A stretch of DNA of 24,802 nt. It comes from a virus. Lineage: Duplodnaviria; Heunggongvirae; Uroviricota; Caudoviricetes. The notes beneath the pieces are model-generated. The model had not been told where the DNA came from. It searched no databases and was given only the letters and a program-made list of their open reading frames with translations. A program made the translations under genes and the position numbers. Within the stretch, counting starts at the first letter, position 1. The number at the start of each line of letters is the position of its first letter. The DNA is taken from IMG/VR virus record IMGVR_UViG_2778261420_000001, positions 1 through 24,802 of that record. The stretch is one strand, 5' to 3'. Positions 6,565 to 24,802 of this stretch are shown here, in pieces.

Positions 6565-6569
6565 GAAAA

Positions 6570-6610: not shown

Positions 6611-6632
6611 TTGGACAAGCGAAGCGCGTCAG

Positions 6633-6890: not shown

Positions 6891-6955
6891 TTTCCACCTC
6901 CCGGAACAGCGTTTTACTGCCACCGATTTTACCCGCTCTTTCCCCATACCGCACA

Positions 6956-10869: not shown

Positions 10870-11883
10870 ATGAACATGACACCAGAAGCACAAAAGCTGG
10901 TTAATCAGTACATCAGCGAACTGCAAAAAACATTCAGTGACTGCGGGAAATCAAGCGATCGTTTCTTTTCGCTGACCGAGCCACGCAGTATTGCTCTGCG
11001 TAAAGCCCTGCTGGAAAGCACGGAGTTTCTGAGTTTCATCACCTGCATGGACGTTCCGCACCCGCAGGGGCAGGTCGTCACCGTGGGCGAATCCACACTG
11101 CGCACCGGTCGCGTGAAAAGCGGTCGTTTCGCTAAAGGTTCGGGCATCAAAGGCAACGAATTTAAACTCGTTGAAACTGATTCCTGCTGCGTGATCACCT
11201 GGGAACAACTCGCCATCTGGGCGAATGCCGGCAGCCCGCAGGAATTTTTCAACCTGATGAACTCCGCCGCCGTTACCAACTTTGCGCTGGATATGCTGCG
11301 CATTGGCTTTAACGGTAAAACAGCAGCGGAAAACTCTGACCCGGAAAGTCACCCGAACGGCGAAGACGTCAACATCGGCTGGCATGAAATCGCCAAAAAG
11401 TGGGGAGAACAGCCCGGCAATACCTCCCGTATTCTGACAGACGCCGTTACCCTGGGCGAAGGCGGCGATTATGTCGGTCTTGATGCCATGGCCTCAGACC
11501 TGATCCGCACTTACATCCCGGCACAGTATCACAACGACCCACGACTTACCGTACTGGTCGGCGCAGACCTTGTGGCTGCTGAAGAACTACGCCTCTACAA
11601 CAAAGAGGATAAGCCTACCGAAAAAGTGGCCGCACAGTTGCTGACGAAGAACATTGCAGGCCGCAAGGCCATCATTCCGCCGTTTATGCCGGGCAAACGT
11701 ATGGTGGTGACCATGCTGCCAAACCTGCAGATCCTGACGCTGAAAGGCTCCCGCCGCCGCAAGGCAGAAGATGTGGGCGATCGCAAACAGTTCGAAAACT
11801 CATACTGGCGTTACGAGGGGTACGCCCTGGGCGATCCGGATTTATATGCTGCCGTAGATGAGTCTGCGGTCACCATCGCCTGA
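10870..11883 (+). CDS. N: Major capsid protein, P2 gpN-like (337 aa)
   Basis: GGAGAG Shine-Dalgarno then ATG. Shares gpN-type motifs (GFNGKTAAENSD..., GEGGDYVGLDAM, NDPRLTVLVG). Lies between the scaffold and terminase small-subunit genes. Confidence 0.85.
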   Translation: MNMTPEAQKLVNQYISELQKTFSDCGKSSDRFFSLTEPRSIALRKALLESTEFLSFITCMDVPHPQGQVVTVGESTLRTGRVKSGRFAKGSGIKGNEFKLVETDSCCVITWEQLAIWANAGSPQEFFNLMNSAAVTNFALDMLRIGFNGKTAAENSDPESHPNGEDVNIGWHEIAKKWGEQPGNTSRILTDAVTLGEGGDYVGLDAMASDLIRTYIPAQYHNDPRLTVLVGADLVAAEELRLYNKEDKPTEKVAAQLLTKNIAGRKAIIPPFMPGKRMVVTMLPNLQILTLKGSRRRKAEDVGDRKQFENSYWRYEGYALGDPDLYAAVDESAVTIA

Positions 11884-11900: not shown

Positions 11901-12611
11901 ATGCCAACGCCAATGCAGCGACAACGTGCCCGACAGATGGATGAGCGCCGTGCGGCGCTCATGACCAGAACGGACGGGAGCGCCATCAGCACAGAGAGTC
12001 AGCACATTAAGCTGCTGGCACTGGATAACGACATCAGACAACTGCACAACATGGAGCTGCTGTCTGACAAGCTGGAATTCAAACGGAACACGCTGCTGCC
12101 CCGCTGGCTGCCACACGCACAGGCTTATCTGGAGGGGGAACGCGTCTATCAGAATCCCATTCTGGTGTACTGCATCATCTGGCTGTTCGATACCGGGCAG
12201 TTTGAGATGGCGCTGCGGTGGGCTGACATTGCCATTGAGCAGGGGCAAAAGACGCCGGAGAACTTCAAAAGCGAGCTGCCAACGTTTGTGGCCCATTTCA
12301 TTCTTGAATGGGCAGAAACCGAAGCTGAACGCGGGAACAGTATCGCGCCATATTTTCAGCAGGTGTTTGAAAAAATCCGTGACAAATGGCGCGTGAATGA
12401 ACGCCTTGCTGCCCGCTACTGGCGCTTTGCAGGCGTCCTGCTGCTGCGCGGCGATGACGGTAAACCGCTGGCCAGTGCAATTAACGATCCGGAGAGACTG
12501 CAACAGGCCGACCAGTGTCTGGAACAGGCTGCCTGGCTGCATCCAAAAATTCAGGTGAAAACCCTGCGCCAGCGCATTGCCGCAAGACTGCGCGCGTTGC
12601 AGGGCACGTAA
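11901..12611 (+). CDS. M: Terminase small / endonuclease subunit, P2 gpM-like (236 aa)
   Basis: Conserved Q-P-O-N-M-L synteny, gpM-like size, and an N-terminal MPTPMQRQRARQM... segment similar to P2 M as I recall it. Confidence 0.8.
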   Translation: MPTPMQRQRARQMDERRAALMTRTDGSAISTESQHIKLLALDNDIRQLHNMELLSDKLEFKRNTLLPRWLPHAQAYLEGERVYQNPILVYCIIWLFDTGQFEMALRWADIAIEQGQKTPENFKSELPTFVAHFILEWAETEAERGNSIAPYFQQVFEKIRDKWRVNERLAARYWRFAGVLLLRGDDGKPLASAINDPERLQQADQCLEQAAWLHPKIQVKTLRQRIAARLRALQGT

Positions 12612-12709: not shown

Positions 12710-13204
12710 ATGTTTGACGGGAAAAGCATTCACTATCAGCAGGCCATTATTCAGAACGATGGATTCTGGCCGGATATTGATGCCGGCGATTTTGAAAAGA
12801 GCCGCAGCATCCCCGCCGTCACGTCACACGAAACGGTGCTGACGGCGCTGCTTTGCGCGGTAACAGAGATTAACACTGAACTGGCTGCACGCCGTGAATA
12901 CTGGCAGGAACAGGGCTACATCCGGGCCGCTGATATTCCGGGTTACACCGTGTTGCAACCAGAGCCGCGCAATACGGATGCACAACCTGAACAGATGCAG
13001 AACCACATTACAGCACTGTACACCAAGGCTGTGTATGCACGCGCAAAGGCTGATCTTTTGCCGGAATCTGCCAGCGTGGGGCGACGCGAGGCGCAGCCCT
13101 CATCAGAAGCCAGCGAGAGCCGCCGGACGTTGCTGGCTGAAGCGGCAATGGCGGTGCGGGCGCTGCTGGGCCGACCGCGTGCATCCATCGCGCTGATTGA
13201 TTAA
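12710..13204 (+). CDS. L: Head completion/stabilisation protein, P2 gpL-like (164 aa)
   Basis: Start taken at the ATG after a GGAGTGAG Shine-Dalgarno; the track ORF begins upstream at 12515. Contains a gpL-like FWPDIDAGDF motif (P2: FFPDIDPK). Confidence 0.8.
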   Translation: MFDGKSIHYQQAIIQNDGFWPDIDAGDFEKSRSIPAVTSHETVLTALLCAVTEINTELAARREYWQEQGYIRAADIPGYTVLQPEPRNTDAQPEQMQNHITALYTKAVYARAKADLLPESASVGRREAQPSSEASESRRTLLAEAAMAVRALLGRPRASIALID

Positions 13205-13213
13205 GGAAATGGT

Positions 13214-13687
13214 ATGACGCAACTCGCCAGCCTGACGGCATTCATTGAAAACAATCTGCCGGCACGCGCACGCATTCCGTTCACCAGTGACATGGATGAC
13301 ATAACGCTCCTTCCGTTTACGAAGTCGCTGGGGCACGGGCAGTTATGTACGCAGGTCCGAAAATATACAGCTTTTCTGCGATGGGACGCATGGCCCTATC
13401 GTCAGCTCAATCCGGATTTGGTGTTTTCTCTGGTTGAAGCCTGGCTGGCAGACAACGCCGGCGACCTGCGCCAGCGCCTGGCACCGGATGCGCCAGCCGT
13501 TGACGTCGAAGTGGATGATGAAAATGAAGTTGCATGGTTGGAAATCAGTCTGCCGCTGGTTGATCCCATCACCCTGGTTGAGGATGAAAACGGCCCCATC
13601 CCCAGAGGCGGGAAACGTTACCAGCTGGAAAAGCCTGAAATCTGGGTGGCTCAGGCGCATCAGCTTCACTGTCAGGTGATGCCATGA
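13214..13687 (+). CDS. Hypothetical virion protein (157 aa), possibly a head-tail joining component
   Basis: AAGGAAA Shine-Dalgarno then ATG, tightly packed between gpL and the next gene with an ATGA stop/start overlap. Acidic C-terminal half. Function inferred from position only. Confidence 0.45.
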   Translation: MTQLASLTAFIENNLPARARIPFTSDMDDITLLPFTKSLGHGQLCTQVRKYTAFLRWDAWPYRQLNPDLVFSLVEAWLADNAGDLRQRLAPDAPAVDVEVDDENEVAWLEISLPLVDPITLVEDENGPIPRGGKRYQLEKPEIWVAQAHQLHCQVMP

Positions 13688-14397
13688 CGCGCCCAGTGAT
13701 TAACGAGTCACAACTCCGGCAGGTTCGTCGCGCCATCAGAGAGGCAGAACTTCCGCCGGCAAAGGCCAGAAAGCTGCTGGTTCGCATTGCGAAATACGGC
13801 CTGATACCGGTTGCACGACGCAATGTGAAAGCACAGCGAACACCGGAGGGGGCAGCCTGGGCACCACGAAAAAGACCGGATAAAGCCAGCGGCAGGTATA
13901 AAAACAAAATGCTGCTGGGACTGCCGAAACTGCTGGCCATCAGGGTTGACGGCAGCGGGAAAAGTGTCCGCCTTTTCTTCAAAAAAGGGGATTACAACAC
14001 CGGCTCTCATGGTGGGGCGGTCGCGTGGGTGCAACAGCACGGCGCAACCATCAAAGGCCGCGCCACAAAACGCCGGGACAGCGAAGCCATGCGCACCCGT
14101 CCCGCCACACGACGGCAGGCAGAACGCCTTCTTTCTCTGGGCTTTCGCGCCCCCGTCGGCGCAGTCAGCAAAAAAACCGGACGCAGGGGACGCAGAAAGC
14201 CTTCTCTGAAATGGATTATGGAAAACATGAGTATGGCGCAGGCCGGACTGGTGATCAGCATTCTGAAAGGCGAGCAGAAAAAACGTGTATGGGAAATCAA
14301 AATCCCCTCCCGCGCATTTCTGGGAGCCAGCGATGCTGAATTTGCCCGCATTCTGGAAGCGCAGCTGCGCAGCCTGCATTACGGCGGCACGAGATAA
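13684..14397 (+). CDS. Putative virion morphogenesis / tail completion protein (237 aa)
   Basis: Translationally coupled to the previous ORF and lying between the head module and the sheath-like gene. Basic, Arg/Lys-rich protein. Assignment is positional. Confidence 0.4.
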   Translation: MTRPVINESQLRQVRRAIREAELPPAKARKLLVRIAKYGLIPVARRNVKAQRTPEGAAWAPRKRPDKASGRYKNKMLLGLPKLLAIRVDGSGKSVRLFFKKGDYNTGSHGGAVAWVQQHGATIKGRATKRRDSEAMRTRPATRRQAERLLSLGFRAPVGAVSKKTGRRGRRKPSLKWIMENMSMAQAGLVISILKGEQKKRVWEIKIPSRAFLGASDAEFARILEAQLRSLHYGGTR

Positions 14398-14416
14398 CAA
14401 AATCAGGAGACAAACC

Positions 14417-15565
14417 ATGACATGGCCATCTGTCACGATTGAACAGTACAACACATTCAGCAGTTCACCGGACGGCGTGGAAAATACGCTGCTGTTTGTG
14501 GGCAATGCACAAAACAACAAAGGTAAGGTTCTGCCGGTTAATACCAACAGCGATCTGGATGAACTGCTGGGAACAAACGCCAGCCCGCTGAAGAACTTCC
14601 TTCAGTCTGCGCTGACCAATGCCGGACAGAATGCCTTTTTCTATGTTGCCGTTCTGCCGGAAGCCGGCAAAGGCAAAAGTGTAGCGCCAGCCTACCAGGT
14701 ATGGCAGAACGCCATACTGGCGGCTCAGGAAACTGTATCAGTTGAAGGCGTGGTGATCACCGAGCCGGTCAGCACGAAGGATGACATCAACGCCATACAG
14801 GCGTTACGTCAGACCATCATCAATAAATATCAGCGCCGCATCTGGTTCATCCTGACCATCGCCGCCAACGACAACAGTAAAACCTGGGCGGAATACGTTG
14901 CCGAACTGACCGCGCTACAGAAAGGCATTGCTGCTCCGCAGGTCATGCTGGTTCCGGAGATTTTTGGATTTGAACCGGGCGTTCTTGCCGGTCGCCTGTG
15001 TAACAGCGCTGTTACCATTGCTGACAGTCCGGCACGTGTGGCAACCGGGCCCCTGTCCGCACTGAAAACCACAGAACGCCCGAAAGACAGCACAGGGCAG
15101 GCAATTGATCTCGACACTCTGCAGGCACTGGCAACCGCCCGCTACAGCGTGCCCATGTGGTATGCCGACTATGACGGCCTTTACTGGGCTGACGGTGTAA
15201 CACTTGAGGTGGAAGGCGGGGACTACAACGTCATTGAGCATGTCCGCATTGCTGATAAGGTGGCGCGCCGCGTGCGGCTGATGGCCATCCCCAAGATTGC
15301 CGACCGCTCGCTGAACAGCACGCCGGGCAGCATTGCCGCACATGAAACGCTGTTTGCCCGCCCACTGCGTGCCATGGCGAAATCCATGCAAATTAACGGC
15401 ATCACGTTTCCGGGCGAAGTGAAATCGCCCCGGAAAGGCGACGTGGTTATCACCTGGCAGGACGAAAAGACGGTCAGCATCAGCATTGTCGTCCGCCCTT
15501 ACGCCTGCCCTAAAACCATCAAAGTGGGCATTCAGCTGGATAAATCTCTGGAGGAAAACGCATGA
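14417..15565 (+). CDS. Putative tail sheath protein (382 aa), not P2 FI-like
   Basis: CAGGAG Shine-Dalgarno then ATG at ~14417; the track ORF starts further upstream at 14285. It is the first large gene of the tail cluster and is followed by a tube-sized gene, chaperones and tape measure. I could not align it to P2 FI from memory. Confidence 0.5.
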   Translation: MTWPSVTIEQYNTFSSSPDGVENTLLFVGNAQNNKGKVLPVNTNSDLDELLGTNASPLKNFLQSALTNAGQNAFFYVAVLPEAGKGKSVAPAYQVWQNAILAAQETVSVEGVVITEPVSTKDDINAIQALRQTIINKYQRRIWFILTIAANDNSKTWAEYVAELTALQKGIAAPQVMLVPEIFGFEPGVLAGRLCNSAVTIADSPARVATGPLSALKTTERPKDSTGQAIDLDTLQALATARYSVPMWYADYDGLYWADGVTLEVEGGDYNVIEHVRIADKVARRVRLMAIPKIADRSLNSTPGSIAAHETLFARPLRAMAKSMQINGITFPGEVKSPRKGDVVITWQDEKTVSISIVVRPYACPKTIKVGIQLDKSLEENA

Positions 15566-16017
15566 CGACCCGCATTAACGGCATGGCGTTTGACACTTTT
15601 ATCGGTGGAACGGATATCCATGTGAAAAGCATCTCACTGGACATCAGCGATGAAAGCGCCGTTGCCAAAACCCGTGGCATCCCTGACGGCAAACTGCGCG
15701 GCCCTGTCAGTGCCGAAGGTGAAATCGAAATGAGTACCCGCAGCTTTAACCAGCTCGGGGAAGTGGCTGCTCAGGCGGGATCGTGGCGTGACCTGCCGCC
15801 AATGGATTTTGTGTTTTACGCCAACACGGGCACTGAAGAAATCCGCGTTGAAGCCTTCGGTTGTGAGCTGATGCTTTCCGGCCTGTTAAGCATTGACACC
15901 GAAAGCGCAGATCTGACCACGCACAAAATCAAGTACGTGGTGGCAAGCCCTGACTTTGTGCGTATCAACGGCGTGCCCGTTCTCTCAGAGAACGACGTGC
16001 GCGGACTGATGGGGTGA
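15562..16017 (+). CDS. Putative tail tube protein (151 aa)
   Basis: ATGA overlap with the sheath-like gene; size and position are typical of a contractile-tail tube protein. Confidence 0.45.
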   Translation: MTTRINGMAFDTFIGGTDIHVKSISLDISDESAVAKTRGIPDGKLRGPVSAEGEIEMSTRSFNQLGEVAAQAGSWRDLPPMDFVFYANTGTEEIRVEAFGCELMLSGLLSIDTESADLTTHKIKYVVASPDFVRINGVPVLSENDVRGLMG

Positions 16018-16020
16018 ACC

Positions 16021-16317
16021 ATGCAGGAGCATGAGCGCACCATTATCACCCTGGGCATTCTGGGTGGAATCGCTGCCGCAAGTCGGGTGCTGGCTGGCGC
16101 AGAGCCGATTACGTTGCGGTTGTTTGTGGGTCGAACCCTGCTGGGGAGCGCGCTGGGTGTTTCTGCCGCTGCCCTGCTGGTTCGTTACCCGAACCTTGAC
16201 CCACTGGCCATTGCCGGCGCAGGCACTGCAATGGGCGTTGCCGGTTACCAGATTGTTGAAATCTTCCTGCGTCATATGCGCCGGAAGCTGGGCGAGAAAG
16301 AGAACAAAGAGGAGTAA
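16021..16317 (+). CDS. Holin-like small membrane protein (98 aa)
   Basis: Three predicted hydrophobic helices (IITLGILGGIAAASRVLAG, TLLGSALGVSAAALLV, LAIAGAGTAMGVAGYQIV) followed by a charged C-terminus (RHMRRKLGEKENKEE); lies immediately upstream of the endolysin. Confidence 0.55.
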   Translation: MQEHERTIITLGILGGIAAASRVLAGAEPITLRLFVGRTLLGSALGVSAAALLVRYPNLDPLAIAGAGTAMGVAGYQIVEIFLRHMRRKLGEKENKEE

Positions 16318-16322
16318 CAGCA

Positions 16323-16430
16323 ATGCTGTCCCGCAGGGAACAAAAAGCTGCTGCCATTGCCTGGAAAATTATCCGGGCACTGTGGTACTGGCTGCGCAAA
16401 CCTCAGCAACCTCATAAGGAGCAAAAATGA
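16323..16430 (+). CDS. Small ORF (35 aa) between holin and endolysin; possible lysis-cassette accessory peptide
   Basis: Not in the supplied track because it is under 60 aa. ATG at ~16323 with a strong AAAGAGGAG Shine-Dalgarno; its stop overlaps the endolysin start (ATGA). Peptide MLSRREQKAAAIAWKIIRALWYWLRKPQQPHKEQK is amphipathic and Trp-rich. Confidence 0.4.
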   Translation: MLSRREQKAAAIAWKIIRALWYWLRKPQQPHKEQK

Positions 16431-16768
16431 AACTCTCCGATAAGCAACAACAATTTACCGTCATGATCGGAAAACTCATCCAGTTTGCCCATCAGCGCGG
16501 TTATGGCCTGACGTTCGGTGAGGCGTACCGCACGCCAGAACAGGCAAAACTCAACGCACAAAAGGGATCCGGCATTGCCAACAGCCTGCACTGCCAGCGG
16601 CTGGCCGTGGATTTTAATCTGTTTATTAACGGTGAATATCAGACCCACACAGAGGCCTACCGCGAGCTGGGCGAGTACTGGGAATCCCTTGGTGGCGCAT
16701 GGGGCGGTCGTTTTAAAAACCGCCCGGATGGCAATCATTTCAGCCTTGAGCACGACGGCGTGCGCTGA
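16427..16768 (+). CDS. Endolysin, peptidase M15-type (VanY-like, probable L-alanyl-D-glutamate endopeptidase), 113 aa
   Basis: AAGGAG Shine-Dalgarno then ATG. Zn-ligand pattern H-x6-D ... H (LHCQRLAVDFNLF ... DGNHFSLEH) and overall size are typical of small M15 phage endolysins. Confidence 0.75.
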   Translation: MKLSDKQQQFTVMIGKLIQFAHQRGYGLTFGEAYRTPEQAKLNAQKGSGIANSLHCQRLAVDFNLFINGEYQTHTEAYRELGEYWESLGGAWGGRFKNRPDGNHFSLEHDGVR

Positions 16769-16774
16769 TTTTAC

Positions 16775-16806
16775 GCTTAATAAGCCTTCCTGCAGGCTTA
16801 TTAAGC
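16775..16806. promoter_or_regulatory. 12-bp-stem inverted repeat GCTTAATAAGCC-N8-GGCTTATTAAGC after the lysis cassette (terminator or protein-binding site)
   Basis: Perfect inverted repeat 7 nt after the endolysin stop and about 27 nt before the chaperone start. The stem is AT-rich and is not followed by a clean T-run, so a regulatory site is as likely as a terminator. Confidence 0.3.
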
Positions 16807-16832
16807 CCTCTTATTCTTGACTTTAAAAGGAA

Positions 16833-17126
16833 ATGATGATGAACGATAAAAACACCCAGACTACCGCAGAGAACACCATCACTTTACAGGTCGGCGAGCA
16901 TGAACTGACGTTTATCCCGACCGTAAAAGCCTACAACGACCTGCAGAACGACTTCATGCCGGATAACAAAATCGCGCCGCTGAAAAACTACCTGCGCCGT
17001 ATCGTGATTAAAGAGCACCGCGATCTGCTTAACCAGTTGCTGGAAAAACCAGGAATGCCGGCCAGCCTGGCAACAGCCGTGAATAACGAGTTTGTGCCGG
17101 AAGTGGAAATCACCGTAAAAAAATAA
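16833..17126 (+). CDS. Tail assembly chaperone, short form (97 aa; lambda G / P2 E analogue)
   Basis: Small ORF directly upstream of the tape measure gene, ending ...EITVKK-stop with an A7 slippery run across its last codons. Confidence 0.6.
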   Translation: MMMNDKNTQTTAENTITLQVGEHELTFIPTVKAYNDLQNDFMPDNKIAPLKNYLRRIVIKEHRDLLNQLLEKPGMPASLATAVNNEFVPEVEITVKK

Positions 17127-17314
17127 AAAGCCATCTGGGGGCCATTGATCGCAATGACCTTACCCGGATGCTGATCCTGCGCCGCCACTGGCTGCCCGGC
17201 GAGGATGACTCGCCGCAGTCACTGGCTGCCGCCGTCTGGCTGGATAACCACTACTGGGAAAATATGAGCATCGCCGTCAATAACGGCATTATCCGTGCTT
17301 TTAAGGGATCGTAA
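16833..17314 (+). CDS. Tail assembly chaperone, long form made by programmed -1 ribosomal frameshift (lambda G-T / P2 E+E' analogue), ~160 aa
   Basis: Slippery heptamer A_AAA_AAA at ~17117-17123 in the zero frame (gtA AAA AAA Taa). The -1 frame is open from there for about 64 codons (…KKIKSHLGAIDRNDLTRMLILRRHW…AFKGS) and its stop overlaps the tape measure ATG (TAATG at ~17312-17316). Confidence 0.55.
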
Positions 17315-19410
17315 TGTCACAACAGCGCCTTGAATTACTTCTTGAACTGACAGACCGCCTGACAAGGCCGTTGCGTGCAGCCGGGCGACAGGTTCAGGGA
17401 TTTGCTGCAACAAGTCGGGGAGCCTTTCGGGACATTGCTACCGGAGGCGCTGCGCTCTGGGGAGTGGGTGCAGCCATTCAGGGGGCACTGATGCCAGCCA
17501 TTGAAATGGACAGGGCGCTCGGTGAGGTGAAATCACTGGGCGTCGCAGAGTCCGGATTGCGTAAACTCAGCCGCGCCGCCGTTGATTTCACTATGGAATA
17601 CGGCGGGGCTGCGCAGGATTTTGTGCGTGCTTCTTACGACATCCAGTCAGCCATTGCCGGGTTAACTGACGATGAGCTGTCCCGCTTCACCACCGCATCA
17701 GCAACGGTGGCAGCAGCAACCAAATCCAGCAGCCAGACCATTACCGCCTACATGGGCACCATGTACGGCATCTTTAAAGACCAGGCTGATGCCATGGGAA
17801 AAAGCAAATGGGTGGAGCAGGTCGCCGGGCAAACCGCCACCGCCGTGCAAATGTTTAAAACAACCGGCGATAACATGTCAGCAGCGTTCACCACGCTGGG
17901 TGCCAGTGCAAAAGCGGCCGGTATTGATGCGGCTGAACAGTTCGCCGTGCTGGGACAACTACAGGCCACCATGAGTGGCAGCGAGGCCGGGACAAAATAC
18001 AAGGCATTTCTTGCCGCAGTAGGCAGCGCCCAGAAAAAGCTGGGGCTTAATTTCGTGAATAAAGACGGCACGATGAAAAGTGTTGTCGAGATCATGAAAC
18101 TTATCAGGGGTAAATTTGGTGATCTGTCAAAAGTGGCTGATTCCGATTTGCTGAAAAGCGCCTTTGGCTCCGATGAAGCTGTGGCCATGATTAAATTACT
18201 CAATGCGGACATTGGCGGACTTGAAAAGAATATCGCCACGCTGGGCAATATCAAAGGTATGGATAAGGCTGTCGAAATGGCGCAGGCCATGGCTGATCCA
18301 TGGGAACAGGCCGCCGCAATTATTAACGGCATTCGCATCGAAATCGGCACGCAGTTGCTGCCTGTTCTGTACCCGTTTATCCAGAAAAGCAACGAAGGCG
18401 GTAAATCCTTTGTTGCCTGGTTACGTCTGTATCCCAATATCACACGGGCTATTGGTTTACTGTCTGCCGCCCTGCTGGGCATTGCCGCAGTGGGTGCCGT
18501 TGTCAACATTATGGTGGGTGTGGCGAAGTTTGTCTGGACAGGACTGCGGCTGGTCTGGCTGGCAGCAGTTGCACCCCTGAAGATTCTCATTCTGCTGAAA
18601 CGCACACTGACGGCTACCATGTGGGCATTCACTGTAGTTGCCCGAACGGTCAGGGCGTTGTATCTGGCCATGTCCATTGCTATGGGAACATACAACGTCA
18701 AAGCAAAAATTCAGCTGGCGCTGCTGAAATTACAGCGCGCCGGACTCTGGCTTTATTCTGTTGCGCTGGGTGCCGCCGGCATAGCAATGAAAATCTACAC
18801 CGCAGTCACCAGCGGAGCTGCAATTGCAACACAGTTACTTTTCAGCCCCATCACATTAATCATCCTGGCACTGGCTGCGCTGGGCGTGGGCATTTATTTC
18901 CTGATCACCCGCTGGGATGAGATTAAAGTCGCGCTGATGGATACTGCCGCCTTTCAGTGGGTGGCTGAAATGGTCGGCAGTATGGGGGCATGGTTCGGCA
19001 ATGCATGGAACACAATCCAGGACGGCTGGAATGCACTGGTTAACTATTTTTCCACGCATTCACCACTGGATGCCCTGAAGGATCTCGCGGGCGGCATCCT
19101 GAATATTTTCAGTAACCTCTGGGAACTGGTGAAACAGTCCTTCAGTGATTCATGGGGCTGGATTGTAGGCAAGCTCAACATGATCCCCGGCGTCAATATC
19201 GACACACCGGAAAGCACAGGAAGTGGCGAAGGCTCCGTATTAACCGGCGGCAAAGCCATCAGTGCGGGACCGGGCGGCATTGCGGCAGAGATGCAGAACA
19301 ACAGCGAAAACCAGACCACCATCGACAACTCCCGTCGTGTGGTTAACGTCAATGTGCAGGATCCATCCCCTGCCCGTCTTAACGAGTGGATGGAGCTGCA
19401 TGCATACTGA
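17314..19410 (+). CDS. Tail tape measure protein (698 aa)
   Basis: Large gene immediately after the frameshifted chaperone pair. Ala/Gly-rich helical N-terminal half and a central block of hydrophobic segments (residues ~380-520), typical of tape measure proteins. Confidence 0.85.
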   Translation: MSQQRLELLLELTDRLTRPLRAAGRQVQGFAATSRGAFRDIATGGAALWGVGAAIQGALMPAIEMDRALGEVKSLGVAESGLRKLSRAAVDFTMEYGGAAQDFVRASYDIQSAIAGLTDDELSRFTTASATVAAATKSSSQTITAYMGTMYGIFKDQADAMGKSKWVEQVAGQTATAVQMFKTTGDNMSAAFTTLGASAKAAGIDAAEQFAVLGQLQATMSGSEAGTKYKAFLAAVGSAQKKLGLNFVNKDGTMKSVVEIMKLIRGKFGDLSKVADSDLLKSAFGSDEAVAMIKLLNADIGGLEKNIATLGNIKGMDKAVEMAQAMADPWEQAAAIINGIRIEIGTQLLPVLYPFIQKSNEGGKSFVAWLRLYPNITRAIGLLSAALLGIAAVGAVVNIMVGVAKFVWTGLRLVWLAAVAPLKILILLKRTLTATMWAFTVVARTVRALYLAMSIAMGTYNVKAKIQLALLKLQRAGLWLYSVALGAAGIAMKIYTAVTSGAAIATQLLFSPITLIILALAALGVGIYFLITRWDEIKVALMDTAAFQWVAEMVGSMGAWFGNAWNTIQDGWNALVNYFSTHSPLDALKDLAGGILNIFSNLWELVKQSFSDSWGWIVGKLNMIPGVNIDTPESTGSGEGSVLTGGKAISAGPGGIAAEMQNNSENQTTIDNSRRVVNVNVQDPSPARLNEWMELHAY

Positions 19411-19750
19411 TAAACCGCTTTACATTGATTTGCTCATCACCGGCCGCAATCTCACGCTGAACAGCGCCAGTGAGCCGGTGTTATGCAACAACAGGGAAAG
19501 TATTGCCCAGGACTGCCAGCACGCCATCATTGAGAGCGGACTGGCAACGCGCCTGCTGGCTGAAAAAAGCCCGACACTTCGTGCCGACATCATGATGCAG
19601 ATGACACTGCTGATTGAAGATGATGAGCGCATCACACCCGGCACGGTCAGTGTGACAGAAGAAACCCCGCTTTCTGGTCGCCTGCTGATTAGCGCCCACA
19701 CCGAAGATTTTTTTGAACCCCTGACTTTTACGGTATCTCTTGATGATTAA
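19400..19750 (+). CDS. Putative baseplate assembly protein (GPW/gp25-like), 116 aa
   Basis: ATG at ~19400 overlapping the tape measure stop. Size and position (just upstream of the baseplate J-like gene) fit gpW; resemblance to P2 W is weak. Confidence 0.4.
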   Translation: MHTDKPLYIDLLITGRNLTLNSASEPVLCNNRESIAQDCQHAIIESGLATRLLAEKSPTLRADIMMQMTLLIEDDERITPGTVSVTEETPLSGRLLISAHTEDFFEPLTFTVSLDD

Positions 19751-20927
19751 CGGCAAACCCACCGCAGATTACGAGCGCATTCTGGCTGATAACGGCATGC
19801 CGGTAACCGAAGAACAGGCACGCGCTGAATTTGAAGCCATTGTCAAAGACGAAGGGCTTATCACCAACACATCCCGCATGTCGCCGTTCTGGCGACTGAT
19901 TACAGCCATCACCACAAAACCCGTGATGTGGCTGAAAGATGCGCTGGTTAATGTGGTGATGAAAAACCTGTTTCTGGCCGATGCCAGCGGTGTATTCGTT
20001 GATGTTTTTGCCTGGGCGGTAAACCTGCAACGCAAGGCCGCCACGCACGCAGCCGGCGTGATTCGTTTCACCAAGAACGACATTGATCGCGCAGTTACAG
20101 TGCCGGCCGGTACGCAGATTCAGACAGAACGCATTAACGGCGTGATTTATACGCTGACCGTTGTCAGGGATACCGTTATTCCGGTAGGAACACTCAGCAT
20201 GAACATCGATGTTTCTGCGGAACAGGCCGGAGCCGGCTTTAACCTTGCGCCGGGATATTACCGCATCCTTCCGGTGGCGATTGATGGTATTGCCGGCGTT
20301 GAGAACGATGAAAACTGGCTGACCACACCGGGTGCCAACGAAGAAAGCGATGACGAGCTGCGTGATCGTGTTCGCAATCAGTTTAATCTTGCCGGCGCTT
20401 ATCACACAGATGCTGTTTACCGGGGATTAATTGCCGGCGTTGCCGGCATCAGTGCCGACCGCATCTATTTTCTGCATGACGCACCACGCGGCCCCGGCAC
20501 AGCAAATGCTTACATTCTGCTGGATACCGGCATCGCATCCGAACCGTTCGTTGATGCCGTAAACGCATTCATTAACGATGAAGGTCATCACGGACACGGT
20601 GATGATCTGCGCTGTTTTTCCATGCCTGAAACACGCCACACCCTGACCGTGACACTCTGGTTATATGCAACACTGAACCTCAGCGATGAGGAAATTCAGA
20701 CGTTATTGCGCAATGTGGAAAATCTGGTTCGCTGTGCATTTCGAGAAAACAGCGATTATGACGTTCAGAAAACATGGCCGTACAGCCGTTTCAGCATGTC
20801 CAGACTGGGCGAAGAGATCCACCAGGTATTTCCGCAGGTGGAGTCGGTTACATTTTCTCTTCCGGATATTCTCAGTGATCTGGCTGTTCCTCGTCTGGAA
20901 TCCCTTACTGTGGAGGTGAGCGCGTGA
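19743..20927 (+). CDS. Baseplate J-like protein (gpJ / gp47 family), ~394 aa
   Basis: Size and position, following a small W-like gene and preceding a gpI-like gene, match the myovirus W-J-I baseplate wedge triad. Start taken at ATG 19743; the track starts at TTG 19740. Confidence 0.75.
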   Translation: MINGKPTADYERILADNGMPVTEEQARAEFEAIVKDEGLITNTSRMSPFWRLITAITTKPVMWLKDALVNVVMKNLFLADASGVFVDVFAWAVNLQRKAATHAAGVIRFTKNDIDRAVTVPAGTQIQTERINGVIYTLTVVRDTVIPVGTLSMNIDVSAEQAGAGFNLAPGYYRILPVAIDGIAGVENDENWLTTPGANEESDDELRDRVRNQFNLAGAYHTDAVYRGLIAGVAGISADRIYFLHDAPRGPGTANAYILLDTGIASEPFVDAVNAFINDEGHHGHGDDLRCFSMPETRHTLTVTLWLYATLNLSDEEIQTLLRNVENLVRCAFRENSDYDVQKTWPYSRFSMSRLGEEIHQVFPQVESVTFSLPDILSDLAVPRLESLTVEVSA

Positions 20928-21559
20928 AACTTCCGGAGATCCCTGAATTCCCGCTCCCCACCTGGATGAATAAAGGCGAGCCGTTAACGCTGGCACATTC
21001 ATCGCATCGCTACTGGGAAAAGGTATACAGCTGGCTGACGTGGCCACTACAGCAGATTGATGTCGACACCTGCGCAGAGCCTTTACTTAACCTGCTGGCT
21101 TATCAGCGCAATATCACCCGATTTAAAGGTGAGCCGGTTTCGTTATTTCGCTTAAGAGTGAAACACGCGTTTATTAACGCTCAGGACTCTGGCGAACGCG
21201 CCGGCTTCGAACGCATCTTTAAGCGTCTTGGCGTGGGAGACGTTAAAACACTGGAACGGCAACTGCAGCATGACTGGGACGTTATTTTACTGCGCATTAA
21301 TGACACCCAGTTAAGTGAAAACAACGCGCTGATGATGCAGCTCGTGCGCCAGTATGGTCGTACCTGCAGGCGCTATTTCTTTCAGGTAATCAATACAACC
21401 ACTGCCCGGCTGACAGCCGGCACATTTGATGGTCATTACAGGTATCACACAGCAGAAGCAACGGTGAGAAAGGACACCATCTGGTTAACCGCTTCGCTAC
21501 AGGCAGGACATTACGGCCTGTCCGTGGAGCATTACACATTACAGGCAGACGAAGCATGA
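20924..21559 (+). CDS. Tail protein I-like (baseplate wedge component), 211 aa
   Basis: GTG start overlapping the J-like stop; it sits between the baseplate J gene and the tail fibre gene as P2 gene I does. Confidence 0.55.
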   Translation: MKLPEIPEFPLPTWMNKGEPLTLAHSSHRYWEKVYSWLTWPLQQIDVDTCAEPLLNLLAYQRNITRFKGEPVSLFRLRVKHAFINAQDSGERAGFERIFKRLGVGDVKTLERQLQHDWDVILLRINDTQLSENNALMMQLVRQYGRTCRRYFFQVINTTTARLTAGTFDGHYRYHTAEATVRKDTIWLTASLQAGHYGLSVEHYTLQADEA

Positions 21560-23256
21560 GCACAATTATTACTGAACAGTACGAACACTGGTGTGCGAAT
21601 CAGCTCATCAGTGGAAAACCTGCGCGCCCGGATACATTTGTTTTTGCATATATTCCGGGACAGGATGAATCCGCAGAGATCCCCCGCGATGAGATACTCC
21701 CTGATGAATCCATGATTCAGTATCGTGCGCCGGTCACCCAGTACGGCCTCCTGTCGCCGAACGCGACCGCGTTTTCCATCATTCTGGACACGACAGTCGG
21801 CGACTTCGAATACAACTGGATCGGTCTGCTGAACGAAGAAAGCGGCGTGCTCTGCATGATTGCACACACACCTCGTCAGCAAAAAATTAAAACAGCGAAC
21901 GGCGTGCAGGGAAACAACCTGATCCGCACATTTTCCATGGAGTTTGACGGCGCGGCCGCAGCAATGCATATCGATGTCAGCGCCGATGTCTGGCAGATTG
22001 ATTTCACTGCGCGCCTTGCAGGAATGGATGAGGCCCGCCGGCTGCTGGCGTTTGATCACTACGGTGAAGCCGCTTTTCTGGGGGATGGTTTTCAGGTCAG
22101 CTATCAGGATGGTACCGCTACTGTTGCCGCCGGCGTGGGTTATGTGGGAGGTCTGCGCGTCAGTCTGCGCAAACCTTACAGCCTGCCGGCTGCGGTCGGG
22201 GATACCCTCTGGATTGATGCAAGCTGGCAGGGATTTGTTACCGGCGAATGGAATACCGTTTTTACGTTCTGCGCCCGCCAGGAACATGCGTCTTATACAG
22301 ACGGTAACGGCTTCCGACACTTTGTCGCGCCACTTGCAAAAATGACAGGAGACGGCCCACAGGACCTGCGCCCGGAGACACCCGACGAGGAACAGAGCAA
22401 TGCACTGGCAGAGCACGAAAAATCCCGCCATCATCCGGATGCAACACTGAAGGAGAAAGGCTTTGCGCAGTACAGCAACTCCACCGACAGCGACGCAGAA
22501 GACCGCGCCGCCACATCAAAGGCAGTAAAAGCTGCAATGGATAAAGCAAAAGACGCTGTTGAGCGCGACGGCGACACCATGACCGGGGAGCTGAAAATCT
22601 GTGGTGTTAATGCACTGAGGATTTTCAACGAAGCTTTTGGCCTGATTTTTCGTCGCTCTGAAGAGTGCCTGCATCTTATTCCCACCCGGGAAAATCAGGG
22701 CGAAAATGGCGATATTGGTCCCCTGCGTCCGTTCACTATTAATCTGCGGACGGGTGAAATATCCATGTCGCATAAAGTGTCTGTTGGTGGCGGCTCTCAG
22801 GTGAATGGTGCGCTGGGTATCGGCGTTCAGAACGCGCTGGGCGGAAACTCAATTGCTTTCGGGGATAACGATACCGGCCTGAAACAGAATGGTGATGGCC
22901 TGCTGGATGTTTATGCCAATAGCGTGCATGTGTTGCGTTTTCAGAGTGGCAGCATTCAGAGCAATAAACCTGTAAACGTTACCGGGCGGGTAACACCGTC
23001 AGACTACGGAAACTTTGATGCCCGTTACCAGACCAAAACAGGCGGCGTGCAGGATGTGCGTTATGGTTCCGAAATGTATTACAACCCGGGAGGTAACCAG
23101 GTATCCTGGACATTTCGCTCACCTTCAGGCCATGGATTATCTGGTATTAATGTGCAGGAAACCGGAAGTAATTCGGCAGATAACATCGGCGGCGTGTATT
23201 ACCGACCGCTTCAGAAACTGATTAACGGCACCTGGTATAACGTGACGAGTGTTTAA
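21556..23256 (+). CDS. Tail fibre protein (566 aa)
   Basis: Central segment AEHEKSRHHPDATLKEKGFAQYSNSTDSDAEDRAATSKAVKAAMDKAKDA resembles the conserved P2 gpH-type region (HEQSRRHPDASLTAKGF...TPKAVKAA). Followed by a tail fibre assembly gene. Confidence 0.85.
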   Translation: MSTIITEQYEHWCANQLISGKPARPDTFVFAYIPGQDESAEIPRDEILPDESMIQYRAPVTQYGLLSPNATAFSIILDTTVGDFEYNWIGLLNEESGVLCMIAHTPRQQKIKTANGVQGNNLIRTFSMEFDGAAAAMHIDVSADVWQIDFTARLAGMDEARRLLAFDHYGEAAFLGDGFQVSYQDGTATVAAGVGYVGGLRVSLRKPYSLPAAVGDTLWIDASWQGFVTGEWNTVFTFCARQEHASYTDGNGFRHFVAPLAKMTGDGPQDLRPETPDEEQSNALAEHEKSRHHPDATLKEKGFAQYSNSTDSDAEDRAATSKAVKAAMDKAKDAVERDGDTMTGELKICGVNALRIFNEAFGLIFRRSEECLHLIPTRENQGENGDIGPLRPFTINLRTGEISMSHKVSVGGGSQVNGALGIGVQNALGGNSIAFGDNDTGLKQNGDGLLDVYANSVHVLRFQSGSIQSNKPVNVTGRVTPSDYGNFDARYQTKTGGVQDVRYGSEMYYNPGGNQVSWTFRSPSGHGLSGINVQETGSNSADNIGGVYYRPLQKLINGTWYNVTSV

Positions 23257-23258
23257 CA

Positions 23259-23810
23259 ATGTTGCATTTAAAAAATATTACTGCGGGCAATCCGAAAACC
23301 GCAGAACAATATCAGATGACAAAACAATATGGTGTCACCTGGCTTTTTTCGGAAGACGACAAAAACTGGCATGAAGAACAGAAGAACTTTGCCAGCGACA
23401 CAATAAAAATGGTTTACACCGGGGACGGGCGCGTGGTGTGGGTCGGTAAGGATGTGACAGGCATTGAACCCCGTAATGCCAGTGTTATTGAAGTTCCGGA
23501 TATTACCGCTAATCGCCGTATTACCGTGCCTGGTTACTGGTTTTACCGCGATGGCAATTTTATCTTCGACTACAAACTTAAAGCGGAAGATGAGCGTGAT
23601 GCACTGTTAAAACAGGTCAGCATCATGACCAGCGAATGGGAAAAAGACCTGCTGCTGGGATTAATCAGCGACGAAGACAGGGAAAAACTGAAAGCCTGCC
23701 GTATTTATACAAAAACGTTACGGGAGATGACATTCAGCCAGGTTACAGATAAAGCATCGTATGCCGCGATTGTATGGCCAGAATTACCGCAGAACATTAG
23801 CGAGAATTAA
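23259..23810 (+). CDS. Tail fibre assembly chaperone, P2 gpG / Tfa-like (183 aa)
   Basis: N-terminus MLHLKNITAGNPKTAEQYQMTKQYGVTWLFSEDDKNWHEE closely matches the gpG N-terminus ([21 protein letters not shown]...WYEE); the C-terminus has the typical ...IVWPELPQ motif. Confidence 0.85.
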   Translation: MLHLKNITAGNPKTAEQYQMTKQYGVTWLFSEDDKNWHEEQKNFASDTIKMVYTGDGRVVWVGKDVTGIEPRNASVIEVPDITANRRITVPGYWFYRDGNFIFDYKLKAEDERDALLKQVSIMTSEWEKDLLLGLISDEDREKLKACRIYTKTLREMTFSQVTDKASYAAIVWPELPQNISEN

Positions 23811-23816
23811 GAAGTA

Positions 23817-24674
23817 ATGAGCGCACTGTTGACGAAAGCATTTGAGAAATGGGTTGCTGAATGCACCGCCAGTAATTTACCGGCACGCCCTGACGCTATT
23901 GTTTTTGCACTGATGGAGAGAGAGCCTTCCAGAGATGATACGATTATTCCTCCTGAAAAAATCACGCACAGGGTAAATAACCTACATTATGGAAAACTGG
24001 ATCAAAACAGCATTGTGTGTAGTGCCATTGTTGCTGATAACGAAAATTTCAACTACGACTGGATTTGCCTGGTTCATCAAGCCAGTAACACATTGTGCGG
24101 AGTTATAAGTGGTCCTGTTCGACATAAACACACAGGAGAAACTATCATCCGGAATTTCGCCATCATTTTTAGCGGACTGCCACAAATCGCTCATATTACT
24201 ACTCCGCCACAAAGCTGGCAGGTAGATTTTTTTTCTGAATTAAATAACAAGGCTCCTCTGGAAAGCCCGTCGTTTTCCGGAGCGCCAACCACTCCAACAC
24301 CACCAAATGATGCAGCGGGTCTTGAGATTGTTAATGCCAAATTTGTACGAATGTTGATAGCTGAGGCAATGGCTCCTCAGGAAAAACCTGCCCTCCCACC
24401 GGAAACACCAAAGCCCGCTTTGCAAATCAGCAGAGTACTGCTTCAGTCCGGGGAACAGACAAGGGGGCCTTTAACAATTAATAGAAAATTTGTTCAGTCA
24501 GGGCGCACCATCCACGAACCGATAACCATTAACAACATACAATTACAAACCGGACGTCTGATGAGCGAGCCGGTAACAGTTAACAGGGGCTTATTTGTAC
24601 CAGCATATCAAACCAATGAGCCACTGACAGTAGCTCGGGCAGTACTGCAGTTTGCGGTTTTATCTGCTGCTTAA
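23817..24674 (+). CDS. Second tail fibre-like protein (285 aa) with a divergent AT-rich C-terminal half
   Basis: Its N-terminal ~130 aa parallel the N-terminus of the first fibre (KWVAECTASNLPARPDAIVFAL vs HWCANQLISGKPARPDTFVFAY; NFNYDWICLV vs DFEYNWIGLL). The C-terminus carries four ~17-aa repeats with core (E/G)P(L/I/V)T(I/V)N. Confidence 0.6.
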   Translation: MSALLTKAFEKWVAECTASNLPARPDAIVFALMEREPSRDDTIIPPEKITHRVNNLHYGKLDQNSIVCSAIVADNENFNYDWICLVHQASNTLCGVISGPVRHKHTGETIIRNFAIIFSGLPQIAHITTPPQSWQVDFFSELNNKAPLESPSFSGAPTTPTPPNDAAGLEIVNAKFVRMLIAEAMAPQEKPALPPETPKPALQISRVLLQSGEQTRGPLTINRKFVQSGRTIHEPITINNIQLQTGRLMSEPVTVNRGLFVPAYQTNEPLTVARAVLQFAVLSAA

Positions 24675-24698
24675 TAGAAACTAAATAAGGGGAATATT

Positions 24699-24802
24699 TT
24701 GAATATTATTAATCTGGAAGGGTTCCGACAAATTCCGGCGAATGAGGGATTGTGCGAGAACTATTATTCAACAAATATTATTTCAGCACTGAACGAAAAC
24801 GG
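24699..24802 (+). CDS. 5' part of an ORF running off the window end (possible chaperone for the second fibre); start codon uncertain
   Basis: AAGGGG Shine-Dalgarno, then an open frame from a TTG at ~24699 (MNIINLEGFRQIPANEGLCENYYSTNIISALNEN...) to the end of the window. AT-rich like the preceding gene. Confidence 0.25.
   Translation, partial: MNIINLEGFRQIPANEGLCENYYSTNIISALNEN

Follow-up and report, generated by a model that had tools for sequence, protein, structure and literature searches.

We analyzed a window of 24,802 nucleotides (positions 1 to 24,802 of IMG/VR virus record IMGVR_UViG_2778261420_000001), part of a prophage that sits between pheA/pheL and raiA in the E. coli chromosome. 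At least 80% of the window was present in 41 complete E. coli genomes, at identities of up to 99.4%. Its virion genes begin with a portal–terminase pair on the minus strand, followed on the plus strand, where all later features lie, by the scaffold, capsid, small terminase, head adaptor, gpR terminator, gpS, sheath, tube, lysis cassette, chaperone with a −1 frameshift, tape measure, gp25-like sheath initiator, gpJ, gpI, fibre, and fibre chaperone. From portal to fibre chaperone, this order is identical to that of orf15 to orf32 in Haemophilus phage HP1 (Hpunavirus, Peduoviridae), and when the genes were compared by BLASTP with those of HP1 and of Salmonella phage SI7, each one matched its positional equivalent best.

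BLASTP identified the portal (6956..7990, minus strand; P2 gpQ/HP1 orf15), called “phage portal protein” by PGAP in the L001 copy of the prophage, with 54% identity to HP1 orf15 versus 37% to P2 Q, and the large terminase subunit (7983..9770, minus strand; gpP/orf16), with 53% identity to HP1 orf16, 55% to SI7 gp02, and 43% to P2 P. It likewise identified the capsid scaffold (9965..10855; gpO/orf17; HP1 38%, P2 34%, partial alignment), the major capsid protein (10870..11883; gpN/orf18; SI7 gp04 48%, HP1 31%, P2 29%), and the small terminase subunit (11901..12611; gpM/orf19; HP1 40%, P2 25%). The head completion or head-to-tail adaptor gene (12710..13204, its start taken from the PGAP call in L001; gpL/orf20) matched the Pfam family Phage_GPL (E = 8e-28), as well as phrog_71, “head-tail adaptor Ad1”. 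The first-pass annotation had recognized this Q-P/O-N-M-L series as P2-like in order and size, which proved correct. Because the head genes are nonetheless, on these identities, themselves HP1-type and nearer to HP1 than to P2, we do not regard 13204/13214 as a recombination joint.

The two genes after gpL, previously listed as unknowns, are homologs of P2 gpR and gpS. The tail terminator (13214..13687, 157 aa; HP1 orf21) matched Pfam P2_Phage_GpR (PF06891, E = 6.8e-16); its PHROG match was phrog_65, “tail terminator” (E = 1.6e-21), and it is 45% identical to SI7 gp07 and 23% to HP1 orf21. The tail completion protein (13684..14397, 237 aa; HP1 orf22) matched Phage_tail_S (PF05069, E = 3.1e-8) and phrog_26 (E = 8.6e-24); a 108-aa alignment with P2 S showed 31% identity, and identity to HP1 orf22 was 28%. 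The sheath-sized and tube-sized genes that follow were placed as the earlier reading had them, and profile searches identified the first as an HP1 orf23-type contractile tail sheath (14417..15565; Pfam DUF2586, E = 6e-128; phrog_907, “tail sheath”, E = 2.8e-147; 47% identity to orf23) and the second as an HP1 orf24-type tail tube (15562..16017; Pfam Phage_HP1_Orf24, E = 1.1e-50; 51% identity to orf24). By tblastn, sheath homologs were found in 76 phage records, every one at less than 60% identity.

Inside the tail cluster, as originally noted, lies a lysis cassette of holin, small ORF, and M15 endolysin. The holin (16021..16317) belongs to the P2 gpY family (Pfam Phage_holin_3_2, E = 5.5e-28; 39% identity to P2 Y), and the endolysin (16427..16768; Pfam Peptidase_M15_4, E = 3.9e-11) is 80% identical to SI7 gp12. 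Between them, a 35-aa cationic amphipathic ORF (16323..16430, MLSRREQKAAAIAWKIIRALWYWLRKPQQPHKEQK) is preceded by a Shine-Dalgarno sequence, GAGGAG, 8 nt upstream, and its stop codon overlaps the endolysin ATG; its product has a net charge of +7 and a helical hydrophobic moment of 0.62. The ORF occurs on at least 1000 contigs, labeled “hypothetical protein” by some annotators. No recognizable spanin was found in this lineage, which carries the small ORF instead, and across 80 related loci the ORF and a spanin were mutually exclusive. In SI7, by contrast, the endolysin gene is followed by one for a spanin (gp13), and no small ORF separates it from the holin gene. The place of the spanin gene in relatives is occupied here, between endolysin and chaperone gene, by a hairpin with a 13-bp stem (16775..16806), the strongest terminator-like site within 13000–24802. 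The 35-aa product may be an outer-membrane disruptor standing in for the absent spanin. It resembles phiKT gp28 “disruptin” (bioRxiv 10.1101/515445), a short cationic peptide in the lysis cassette of a spanin-less E. coli phage, in physicochemical properties and context only; the two share no sequence similarity.

Downstream, the tail assembly chaperone (16833..17126; HP1 orf26, 40% identity), a functional analog of P2 gpE, matched Pfam Phage_TAC_10 (E = 1.6e-26). The frameshifted chaperones proposed earlier were supported by a −1 frameshift site with extension (17117..17314): a slippery run, A AAA AAA, lies at 17117–17123, and from 17123 the −1 frame runs uninterrupted to a stop at 17312–17314, with the extension including DUF6890 (E = 3.5e-24). 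Frameshifting here would yield a long chaperone form analogous to P2 E+E′. The tape measure (17314..19410; Pfam PhageMin_Tail, E = 7.5e-29; phrog_28, E = 1.3e-89) aligned over its full length with HP1 orf27 at 38% identity. Next comes a 116-aa protein (19400..19750; HP1 orf28), described in the first pass as W-like; its family is DUF2590, and its predicted fold matches gp25/gpW sheath initiators. Because genes abut or overlap here, there is no room for gpD, gpV, or gpU between tape measure and J, as the earlier reading had stated. The J-like, I-like, then fibre order was also confirmed. The gpJ/gp6-family baseplate wedge gene (19740..20927; Pfam Baseplate_J, E = 3.3e-31) is 55% identical to HP1 orf29, and the gpI-family wedge or fibre-attachment gene (20924..21559) is 48% identical to HP1 orf30, matching phrog_1228 (E = 9e-82) and, above the curated cutoff, Pfam Tail_P2_I (E = 7.4e-5). 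These are followed by a tail fibre with a gpH-like N-terminus (21556..23256; HP1 orf31; Phage_tail_fib, E = 3.5e-29, and Phage_fiber_2), a P2 gpG-family fibre assembly protein (23259..23810; Caudo_TAP, E = 8e-22; 40% identity to P2 G), and a second, short fibre-like gene (23817..24674) with the baseplate-attachment N-terminal domain only (Phage_tail_fib, E = 4.7e-9 over residues 3–138), which has no equivalent in HP1 or SI7. The window ends within a 352-aa gene, of which it holds the first 34 codons (24699..24802), translating as the L001 35965–37023 product.

Amino-acid identity to HP1, gene by gene, was 23–57%. The two layouts agree in the lysis cassette between tube and chaperone and in gpR and gpS directly after the head adaptor. 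The present element differs from HP1 in that hol/lys give way to a P2 gpY-type holin and an M15 endolysin, the Rz-like spanin (orf25) is missing, the short fibre-like gene and the 352-aa gene precede orf33, and ParM/ParR, ogr, and Cox are encoded in an early region that resembles P2/186. The closest sequenced phages were SI7 (Irrigatiovirus), Cronobacter phage ESSI-2, and the Escherichia ESSI2_ev phages (sheath ~55–56%, J 60%, orf35 48%, M15 endolysin 80% identity), which share the late-gene order, including an ogr-like gene adjoining the portal, but differ in their early regions. At the nucleotide level, no phage record covered more than 4% of the region by megablast. Enterobacteria phage P2 (Peduovirus) shares the head order and the functional parts list of the tail, and homologs of its R, S, Y, T (partial), H (N-terminus), G, and A were found. 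However, its sheath, tube, U, D, V, W, J, and I had no BLAST-level match in the present element, which is not divided into the P2 tail blocks X-lysis-R-S, V-W-J-I-H-G, and FI-FII-E-T-U-D and, unlike P2, has no separate gpD hub, gpV spike, and LysM glue protein gpX.

In the 99.4%-identical E. coli copies, as detailed here for one genome, the operon runs on past 24802 with homologs of HP1 orf33 (249 aa, window-equivalent 25790–26539; 25% identity), orf34 (191 aa, 26511–27086; Pfam HP1_ORF34, “baseplate complex protein”, E = 5e-53), and orf35 (565 aa, ~27083–28780; 38% identity; phrog_2258, “baseplate protein”, E = 3.6e-234). They were present in 83/83, 83/83, and 81/83 loci, respectively. Because the window stops at 24802, orf33–35 of the source genome are extrapolated from these copies, and they probably follow there as well. 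We searched an AF2 model of a 97%-identical orf35 homolog with Foldseek, obtaining 47 matches at E ≤ 1e-3. Hubs or hub-spikes of contractile systems made up nearly all of the top ranks, at probability 1.00, including VgrG-like hub-spikes of eCIS, PVC, Afp, and T6SS (E = 1e-16 to 1e-13), and the model also matched the hubs Mu gp44, pyocin R2 hub, and T4 gp27. The likeness to fused hub-spikes (T6SS VgrG, Pvc8, Afp8, AlgoCIS) covers the hub domains and OB fold, with matched VgrG, Pvc8, and Afp8 chains of 504–645 residues similar in length to the 565-aa protein, although identity is only ~9–14% and orf35 is a phage virion protein rather than part of a secretion system. An OB-fold motif, GxxVxVxFxxGxPDxPxI, aligns to VgrG1 and Pvc8. 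Since the model is confident only at ~residues 1–250 (pLDDT <50 at 353–448), the spike half rests on this motif and on full-length, high-rmsd Foldseek alignments; for the C-terminal beta-helix or tip the model is uninformative. Independently, published HHpred analysis of HP1 orf35 matches its N-terminal part with gpD and its C-terminal part with gpV. The predicted fold thus indicates that orf35 is a single VgrG-like polypeptide fusing the hub (gpD/gp27) with the OB-fold spike (gpV/gp5). At the sequence level, neither orf33 nor orf34 could be linked to gpU, to gpX, to the tube protein, or to any solved structure, and a LysM (gpX-like) domain was found nowhere.

The first-pass annotation had interpreted the region as a mosaic with no hub or spike genes, leaving open that the missing components lay beyond the window, were fused into other proteins, or were lacking from an unusually minimal tail. 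Within the window their absence holds, because HP1-type phages place hub and spike after the fibre genes; past 24802 the hub-spike gene starts after ~2.3 kb, so the first of these options was correct and a minimal tail is not supported. That annotation had also named, as contrary to its reading, a standard arrangement with hub/spike genes shortly past the window edge, and orf33–35 are indeed placed as in HP1 and SI7. A P2-type head recently joined at ~13210 to a foreign contractile-tail block, with dedicated hub and spike lacking or their functions fused within the window, would account for the lack of any gpD, gpV, or gpU signature there, for a divergence from P2 that is far greater in the tail genes than in the head genes, and for the failure of P2 FI, FII, U, D, V, W, and X to give a tblastn match in the whole prophage. 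We consider it highly improbable nonetheless, as the portal shows the head to be HP1-type too, the same head and tail are paired in HP1, SI7, and 76 phage records, a VgrG-like hub-spike gene follows past the window, and the joints left by recent recombination lie at the early/late boundaries rather than between head and tail. Identity of the early region to an E. coli element with a P2-type virion module is 96%. Head and connector modules are common to the HP1 and P2 subgroups, whose tail modules are very divergent (PMC10612066), and both this deep tail split and the gpD–gpV fusion in HP1 have been published (Viruses 2023;15:2061). Modular exchange of the tail block therefore stands only as an ancient, family-level event, not as a feature of the present element, and “non-P2” describes the tail at the BLAST level only, as it is of the known HP1 type.

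There are two further alternatives. The present copy could be a decaying, non-inducible remnant that no longer builds virions, with genes beyond the window or their function lost: an IS3-family transposase fragment occupies 1–661, where other copies have early genes, a near-identical copy, H23, carries an IS66 insertion, and the lineage has no recognizable spanin. This seems unlikely, given that every late ORF of the window is intact and of full length relative to HP1 and SI7, that the IS3 fragment lies at the left window edge, within the early region and well clear of the late genes, and that the prophage is kept at 98–99% identity in the 41 complete genomes, and also in many IMG/VR viral contigs, with orf33–35 present. 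Alternatively, the 565-aa protein could be another baseplate or lytic protein and not the true hub and spike of HP1-type tails. Its sequence-level matches are weak (Phage_base_V, E = 0.019; PDB phmmer, E ~0.7), in line with such a reading, as is the low-confidence C-terminal half of the model, but the structural matches, the published HHpred mapping, and database names, among them “phage baseplate assembly protein V” and also “Gp5/Type VI secretion system Vgr protein OB-fold”, make it highly improbable.

Homologies, synteny, and predicted folds form the basis of the HP1-type reading, under which 13214–21559 and the head genes very probably constitute a complete, standard, prophage-borne virion module of HP1-subgroup Peduoviridae (P2-like phages). 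By gene content and order, its layout is the canonical HP1-subgroup late-gene layout rather than a new mosaic. The virion would be expected to assemble an ordinary contractile tail with a trimeric hub-spike. There would be six wedges of gpJ2-gpI with the DUF2590 sheath initiator, and the rest of the baseplate core would come from orf33, orf34, and orf35, encoded after the fibre genes in HP1-type phages, with orf34 tentatively as tube initiator; tube and sheath would polymerize along the tape measure, and gpR and gpS would cap the tail.

The gene order of the window was checked by ORF listing together with Pfam and PHROG profile searches, and the order that the first-pass annotation had given for 13214–21559 proved accurate within the window. 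The head-completion gene (12710–13204; Phage_GPL) is followed by two genes that had been listed as unknowns; profile searches identified them as homologues of P2 gpR (13214–13687; Pfam P2_Phage_GpR, E = 6.8e-16; PHROG 'tail terminator') and P2 gpS (13684–14397; Phage_tail_S, E = 3.1e-8). Straight after these come an HP1-type sheath (14417–15565; DUF2586, E = 6e-128; PHROG 'tail sheath', E = 2.8e-147) and tube (15562–16017; Phage_HP1_Orf24, E = 1.1e-50). The lysis cassette, consisting of the holin (16021–16317) and the M15 endolysin (16427–16768), lies between the tube, which ends at 16017, and the chaperone (16833–17126; Phage_TAC_10). The tape measure (17314–19410) leads directly into the DUF2590 gene equivalent to HP1 orf28 (19400–19750), J (19740–20927; Baseplate_J), I (20924–21559; Tail_P2_I), the fibre (21556–23256), the fibre assembly protein or fibre chaperone (23259–23810) and a second, short fibre-like gene (23817–24674). 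From the tape measure through I, adjacent genes abut or overlap, leaving no room there for a hub-, spike- or gpU-sized gene; the earlier observation that no gene of gpD, gpV or gpU size lies between the tape measure and J is therefore upheld. A 128-aa ORF in another frame over the holin (16031–16417) was dismissed as a mechanical ORF, having no homologue and being left unannotated in the PGAP copy.

The division of P2-like phages into HP1 and P2 clusters is of long standing, and the genes at 13214–21559 form a standard HP1-type Peduoviridae virion module, an architecture already known since the genome of Haemophilus phage HP1 (U24159/NC_001697). Megablast of 13214–21559 against phage genomes returned two short patches only (4% and 1% of the query), indicating that there is no close sequenced phage at the DNA level and that a protein-level search was needed. 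In gene-by-gene BLASTP of the window proteins against HP1, Salmonella phage SI7 and P2, every window protein matched an HP1 and an SI7 protein at the equivalent position. Identity to HP1 was 47% for the sheath (orf23), 51% for the tube (orf24), 38% for the tape measure, 57% for the DUF2590 protein (orf28), 55% for J (orf29) and 48% for I (orf30). The head proteins were likewise closer to HP1 than to P2, at 54% versus 37% for the portal, 53% versus 43% for the large terminase and 40% versus 25% for the small terminase; the portal and large terminase genes are divergently transcribed and adjoin those for the scaffold, capsid, small terminase and head adaptor. Exactly the late-gene order of the window is seen in the annotated HP1 and SI7 genomes; in HP1 it runs orf15(Q)-orf16(P) | orf17(O)-orf18(N)-orf19(M)-orf20(L), orf21-orf22-orf23-orf24-hol-lys and then orf25-orf26-orf27-orf28-orf29-orf30-orf31-orf32-orf33-orf34-orf35. 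A tblastn search with the sheath recovered 76 phage records, all Peduoviridae-type temperate myoviruses, including the Cronobacter/Escherichia ESSI-2 group, Salmonella SI7/SW3/SW5, Yersinia vB_YenM_324, Aeromonas phiO18P, Pasteurella F108, Haemophilus HP1/HP2 and Pseudomonas phi3.

The chaperone gene ends in GTA AAA AAA TAA, with a slippery A AAA AAA at 17117–17123. From the slippery run, the −1 frame remains open across a DUF6890 segment up to 17312–17314, where it overlaps the tape-measure ATG (17314). These are features of a programmed −1 frameshift chaperone pair, as in P2 E/E+E′ and lambda G/GT, and point to a predicted frameshift.

The stretch is part of a chromosomal E. coli prophage; a search of 5426 complete E. 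coli genomes found at least 80% of the window in 41 of them, with identity reaching 99.4%. In the near-identical copy in NZ_CM128548 (locus L001; window coordinate = L001 coordinate − 11266), the late operon goes on past the window end with genes for 352-aa, 249-aa, 191-aa and 565-aa products in succession, the last three being homologues of HP1 orf33 (25%), orf34 (40%) and orf35 (38%). The 191-aa product matches Pfam PF25759 'HP1 ORF34 baseplate complex protein' (E = 5e-53) and the 565-aa product phrog_2258 'baseplate protein' (E = 3.6e-234). Homologues of orf33, orf34 and orf35 were present in 83/83, 83/83 and 81/83 related loci, respectively. The three genes follow the fibre genes in the 99.4%-identical E. 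coli copies and presumably do so in the source genome as well.

The 565-aa orf35 homologue gave a weak match to the Phage_base_V OB domain, and its motif GxxVxVxFxxGxPDxPxI aligns to VgrG1 and Pvc8; the 1116 homologues collected include entries titled 'phage baseplate assembly protein V' or 'Gp5/T6SS Vgr OB-fold'. A structure predicted for a 97%-identical member, rather than for the 565-aa protein itself, had a mean pLDDT of 67, with residues 1–250 at ~80–95 and low confidence after residue 350. Its best Foldseek matches in the PDB were the fused hub-spikes AlgoCIS, T6SS VgrG, PVC Pvc8 and Afp8 (E = 2e-16 to 4e-13), followed at lower rank by the stand-alone hubs Mu gp44, MuSo2 43-kDa protein, pyocin R2 hub and T4 gp27. 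This predicted model is consistent with a gp27/gp5 (VgrG-type) hub and an OB-fold spike in one chain, and the independently run fold search agrees with the published gpD–gpV fusion (PMC10612066). Taken with the position of orf35, the fold matches indicate that hub and spike are present as one VgrG-type gene at window-equivalent 27083–28780, ~2.3 kb past the window end in the near-identical copies. The apparent lack of hub and spike genes in the first-pass annotation was thus an artefact of where the window ends. Its suggestion that the missing parts might lie beyond that end was right, although its interpretation is otherwise mostly superseded by the standard HP1-type module.

The 'W-like' label given earlier to 19400–19750 is supported at the fold level. 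The DUF2590 gene has the features of a gp25/gpW sheath initiator, namely a gp25 fold, a size of ~100–130 aa and a position directly upstream of the gpJ/gp6 wedge gene; Foldseek alone was marginal for this protein, and the fold comparison names diffocin, phiCD508 and Afp9. The P2 baseplate core also holds the tube initiator gpU, whose pyocin homologue is 'Ripcord PA0626', and the LysM 'glue' protein gpX (bioRxiv 10.64898/2026.09.14.750843). The module contains no detectable LysM domain. The orf33 and orf34 homologues (L001 37056–37805 and 37777–38352; window-equivalent 25790–27086, past the window end) invariably accompany the hub-spike gene; at the sequence level, neither shows a detectable relationship to P2 gpU, P2 gpX, tube proteins or any protein of solved structure. 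By hhalign, the orf33 and orf34 profiles gave probabilities of <1% against both P2 gpU and the window tube protein. Profile searches with a 16-sequence orf33 and a 10-sequence orf34 alignment against PDB sequences yielded noise only (E > 0.5), as did a Pfam scan of all orf33 family members, and single-sequence phmmer of orf34 against the PDB yielded nothing. The gpU relatives from viral contigs were useless for building a profile, since none of the 80 loci fell below 98% identity to P2 gpU. Published work (PMC10612066 supplement) links HP1 orf34 to PF06995 (gpU) by HHpred at 15% identity, flagged 'uncertain', and reports that mass spectrometry of phage ACA1 virions detected that phage's orf33 homologue. 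We infer that orf33 is a virion protein, and orf34 is probably the tube initiator. For these two proteins of HP1-type baseplates, no P2 counterpart was recognised.

Other readings of the tail cluster fare less well than the HP1-type module. An ordinary P2 arrangement should contain detectable FI, FII, U, D, V, W and X; in tblastn of these P2 proteins against the whole 48-kb locus, the best E was not below 0.1, and the P2-subgroup tail order, V-W-J-I-H-G and FI-FII-E-T-U-D, differs from that of the window. As none of U, D, V, X, W, FI and FII finds a match anywhere in the prophage, there is also no second, P2-type set. A Mu-like tail might be read from the Mu gp44 match, yet that match is at the fold level only, via the hub domain, and both the gene order and the families differ from those of Mu. 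A tailocin or PLTS is ruled out by the full head module, the integrase and the replication genes.

The L001 copy lies between pheA/pheL and raiA and carries a P2-like integrase, repressor, Cox, gpA-type replication endonuclease, ParM/ParR and an ogr-like gene. In the window, an actin-like ParM (StbA_N, E = 1.8e-82) is encoded at 4613–5572 and a ParR/StbB-type partition protein at ~5577–5891; the rep-parMR block also occurs at 95–96% identity on E. coli and Salmonella records filed as plasmids, which suggests that episomal maintenance of this ParMR prophage lineage is also possible. At the left edge of the window, an IS3-family transposase fragment (1–661), of which many E. coli plasmids carry copies at 97% identity, replaces early-region sequence present in the L001 copy, so the early genes of this copy may be disrupted. 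At its right end, past the window (L001 40874–42649), the prophage encodes a Hok/Gef toxin and, in a Mu mom-like regulatory layout, a DNA methyltransferase under Com regulation, just before raiA. Beyond the main fibre, the short gene at 23817–24674 encodes a baseplate-attachment N-terminal domain only. The first 34 codons of the 352-aa gene (phrog_8291) are window 24699–24802, and the gene continues in L001 (35965–37023); only 3 of ~84 related loci have it, and HP1 and SI7 lack it. These two genes may constitute an accessory or alternative receptor-binding module.

The early region is 89–96% identical at the nucleotide level to pZ1323PEC0009-2 (NZ_CP148288), a 34.5-kb (34,461-bp) circular E. 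coli record. The match covers window 728–5729, with rep and ParM at 96%, and the right-end com/methyltransferase block is 95% identical. pZ1323PEC0009-2 carries a P2-subgroup virion module (L-X-holin-endolysin-R-S-V-W-J-I-H and FI-FII-E-T-U-D); the two elements have no nucleotide similarity anywhere in the late region, and identity between their head proteins is only 23–37%. A shared backbone with late regions dissimilar at the nucleotide level indicates that the unit of exchange is the entire ~22-kb virion block, portal through orf35. Its joints lie at ~5730–6950 of the window and downstream of orf35. With head genes nearer to HP1 than to P2, 13204/13214 is not a joint of differing ancestry in this element. 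The first-pass annotation had instead proposed a P2-type head joined to an exchanged, non-P2 tail block at 13214–21559; the head genes are also HP1-type, and the tail difference is an ancient, family-level feature. The head and connector modules of the HP1 and P2 subgroups share a common ancestor whereas their tail modules are far more divergent, and this tail dichotomy and the gpD–gpV fusion have been published explicitly (Viruses 2023;15:2061, PMC10612066). An ogr/Delta-like zinc-finger late activator (6633–6890, − strand) adjoins the portal, as in SI7, whereas in P2 and pZ1323PEC0009-2 the ogr activator stands after gene D; here the ogr-like activator seems to move together with the HP1-type late module.

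HP1 and SI7 encode an Rz-like spanin 3′ of the endolysin, a position at which this prophage has a 64-nt gap with a 13-bp-stem hairpin (16775–16806). No spanin was detected in the whole prophage by homology or lipobox scan, and tblastn with P2 lysA/B/C, HP1 orf25 and SI7 gp13 gave no credible match across it. Between holin and endolysin sits a 35-aa ORF (16323–16430) with a good Shine-Dalgarno sequence and a stop codon overlapping the endolysin ATG; its peptide has a net charge of +7 and a hydrophobic moment of 0.62, compatible with a strongly amphipathic helix. We surveyed 80 viral contigs with a related M15 endolysin and found a SI7-type spanin and no small ORF in 58, other two-component spanins in 3, and a small cationic ORF in the holin-endolysin position with no spanin in 19, making small ORF and spanin mutually exclusive (19 versus 61 loci). 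The 19 loci are one lineage and thus represent one or two evolutionary events only. One of them, a more divergent relative (L183), has a different peptide sequence with the same net charge of +7 and a hydrophobic moment of 0.61. The peptide is annotated 'hypothetical protein' on at least 1000 contigs, with 61 allelic variants, those listed being 33–35 aa, and a PHROG search found no family. The spanin-less phage phiKT encodes the 'disruptin' gp28 (bioRxiv 10.1101/515445), and the 35-aa ORF is likewise small, cationic, amphipathic and located in the lysis cassette of a spanin-less phage. By this analogy, the ORF could tentatively be regarded as a functional outer-membrane disruptor, translationally coupled to the M15 endolysin and present only in the lineage that lost the Rz-like spanin, a doubtful but possible role.

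When HP1-type prophages in Enterobacteriaceae are annotated, DUF2586 can be taken as the sheath, Phage_HP1_Orf24 as the tube, DUF2590 as the sheath initiator and the last large gene after the fibres as the hub-spike. If functional, the 35-aa ORF would represent a second 'disruptin'-type way of completing lysis, unrelated to the first and carried by a temperate P2/HP1-like E. coli phage. An HP1-type virion module on a backbone 96% identical to that of a carrier of a P2-type module represents a clean, recent swap of the whole late region within Peduoviridae.
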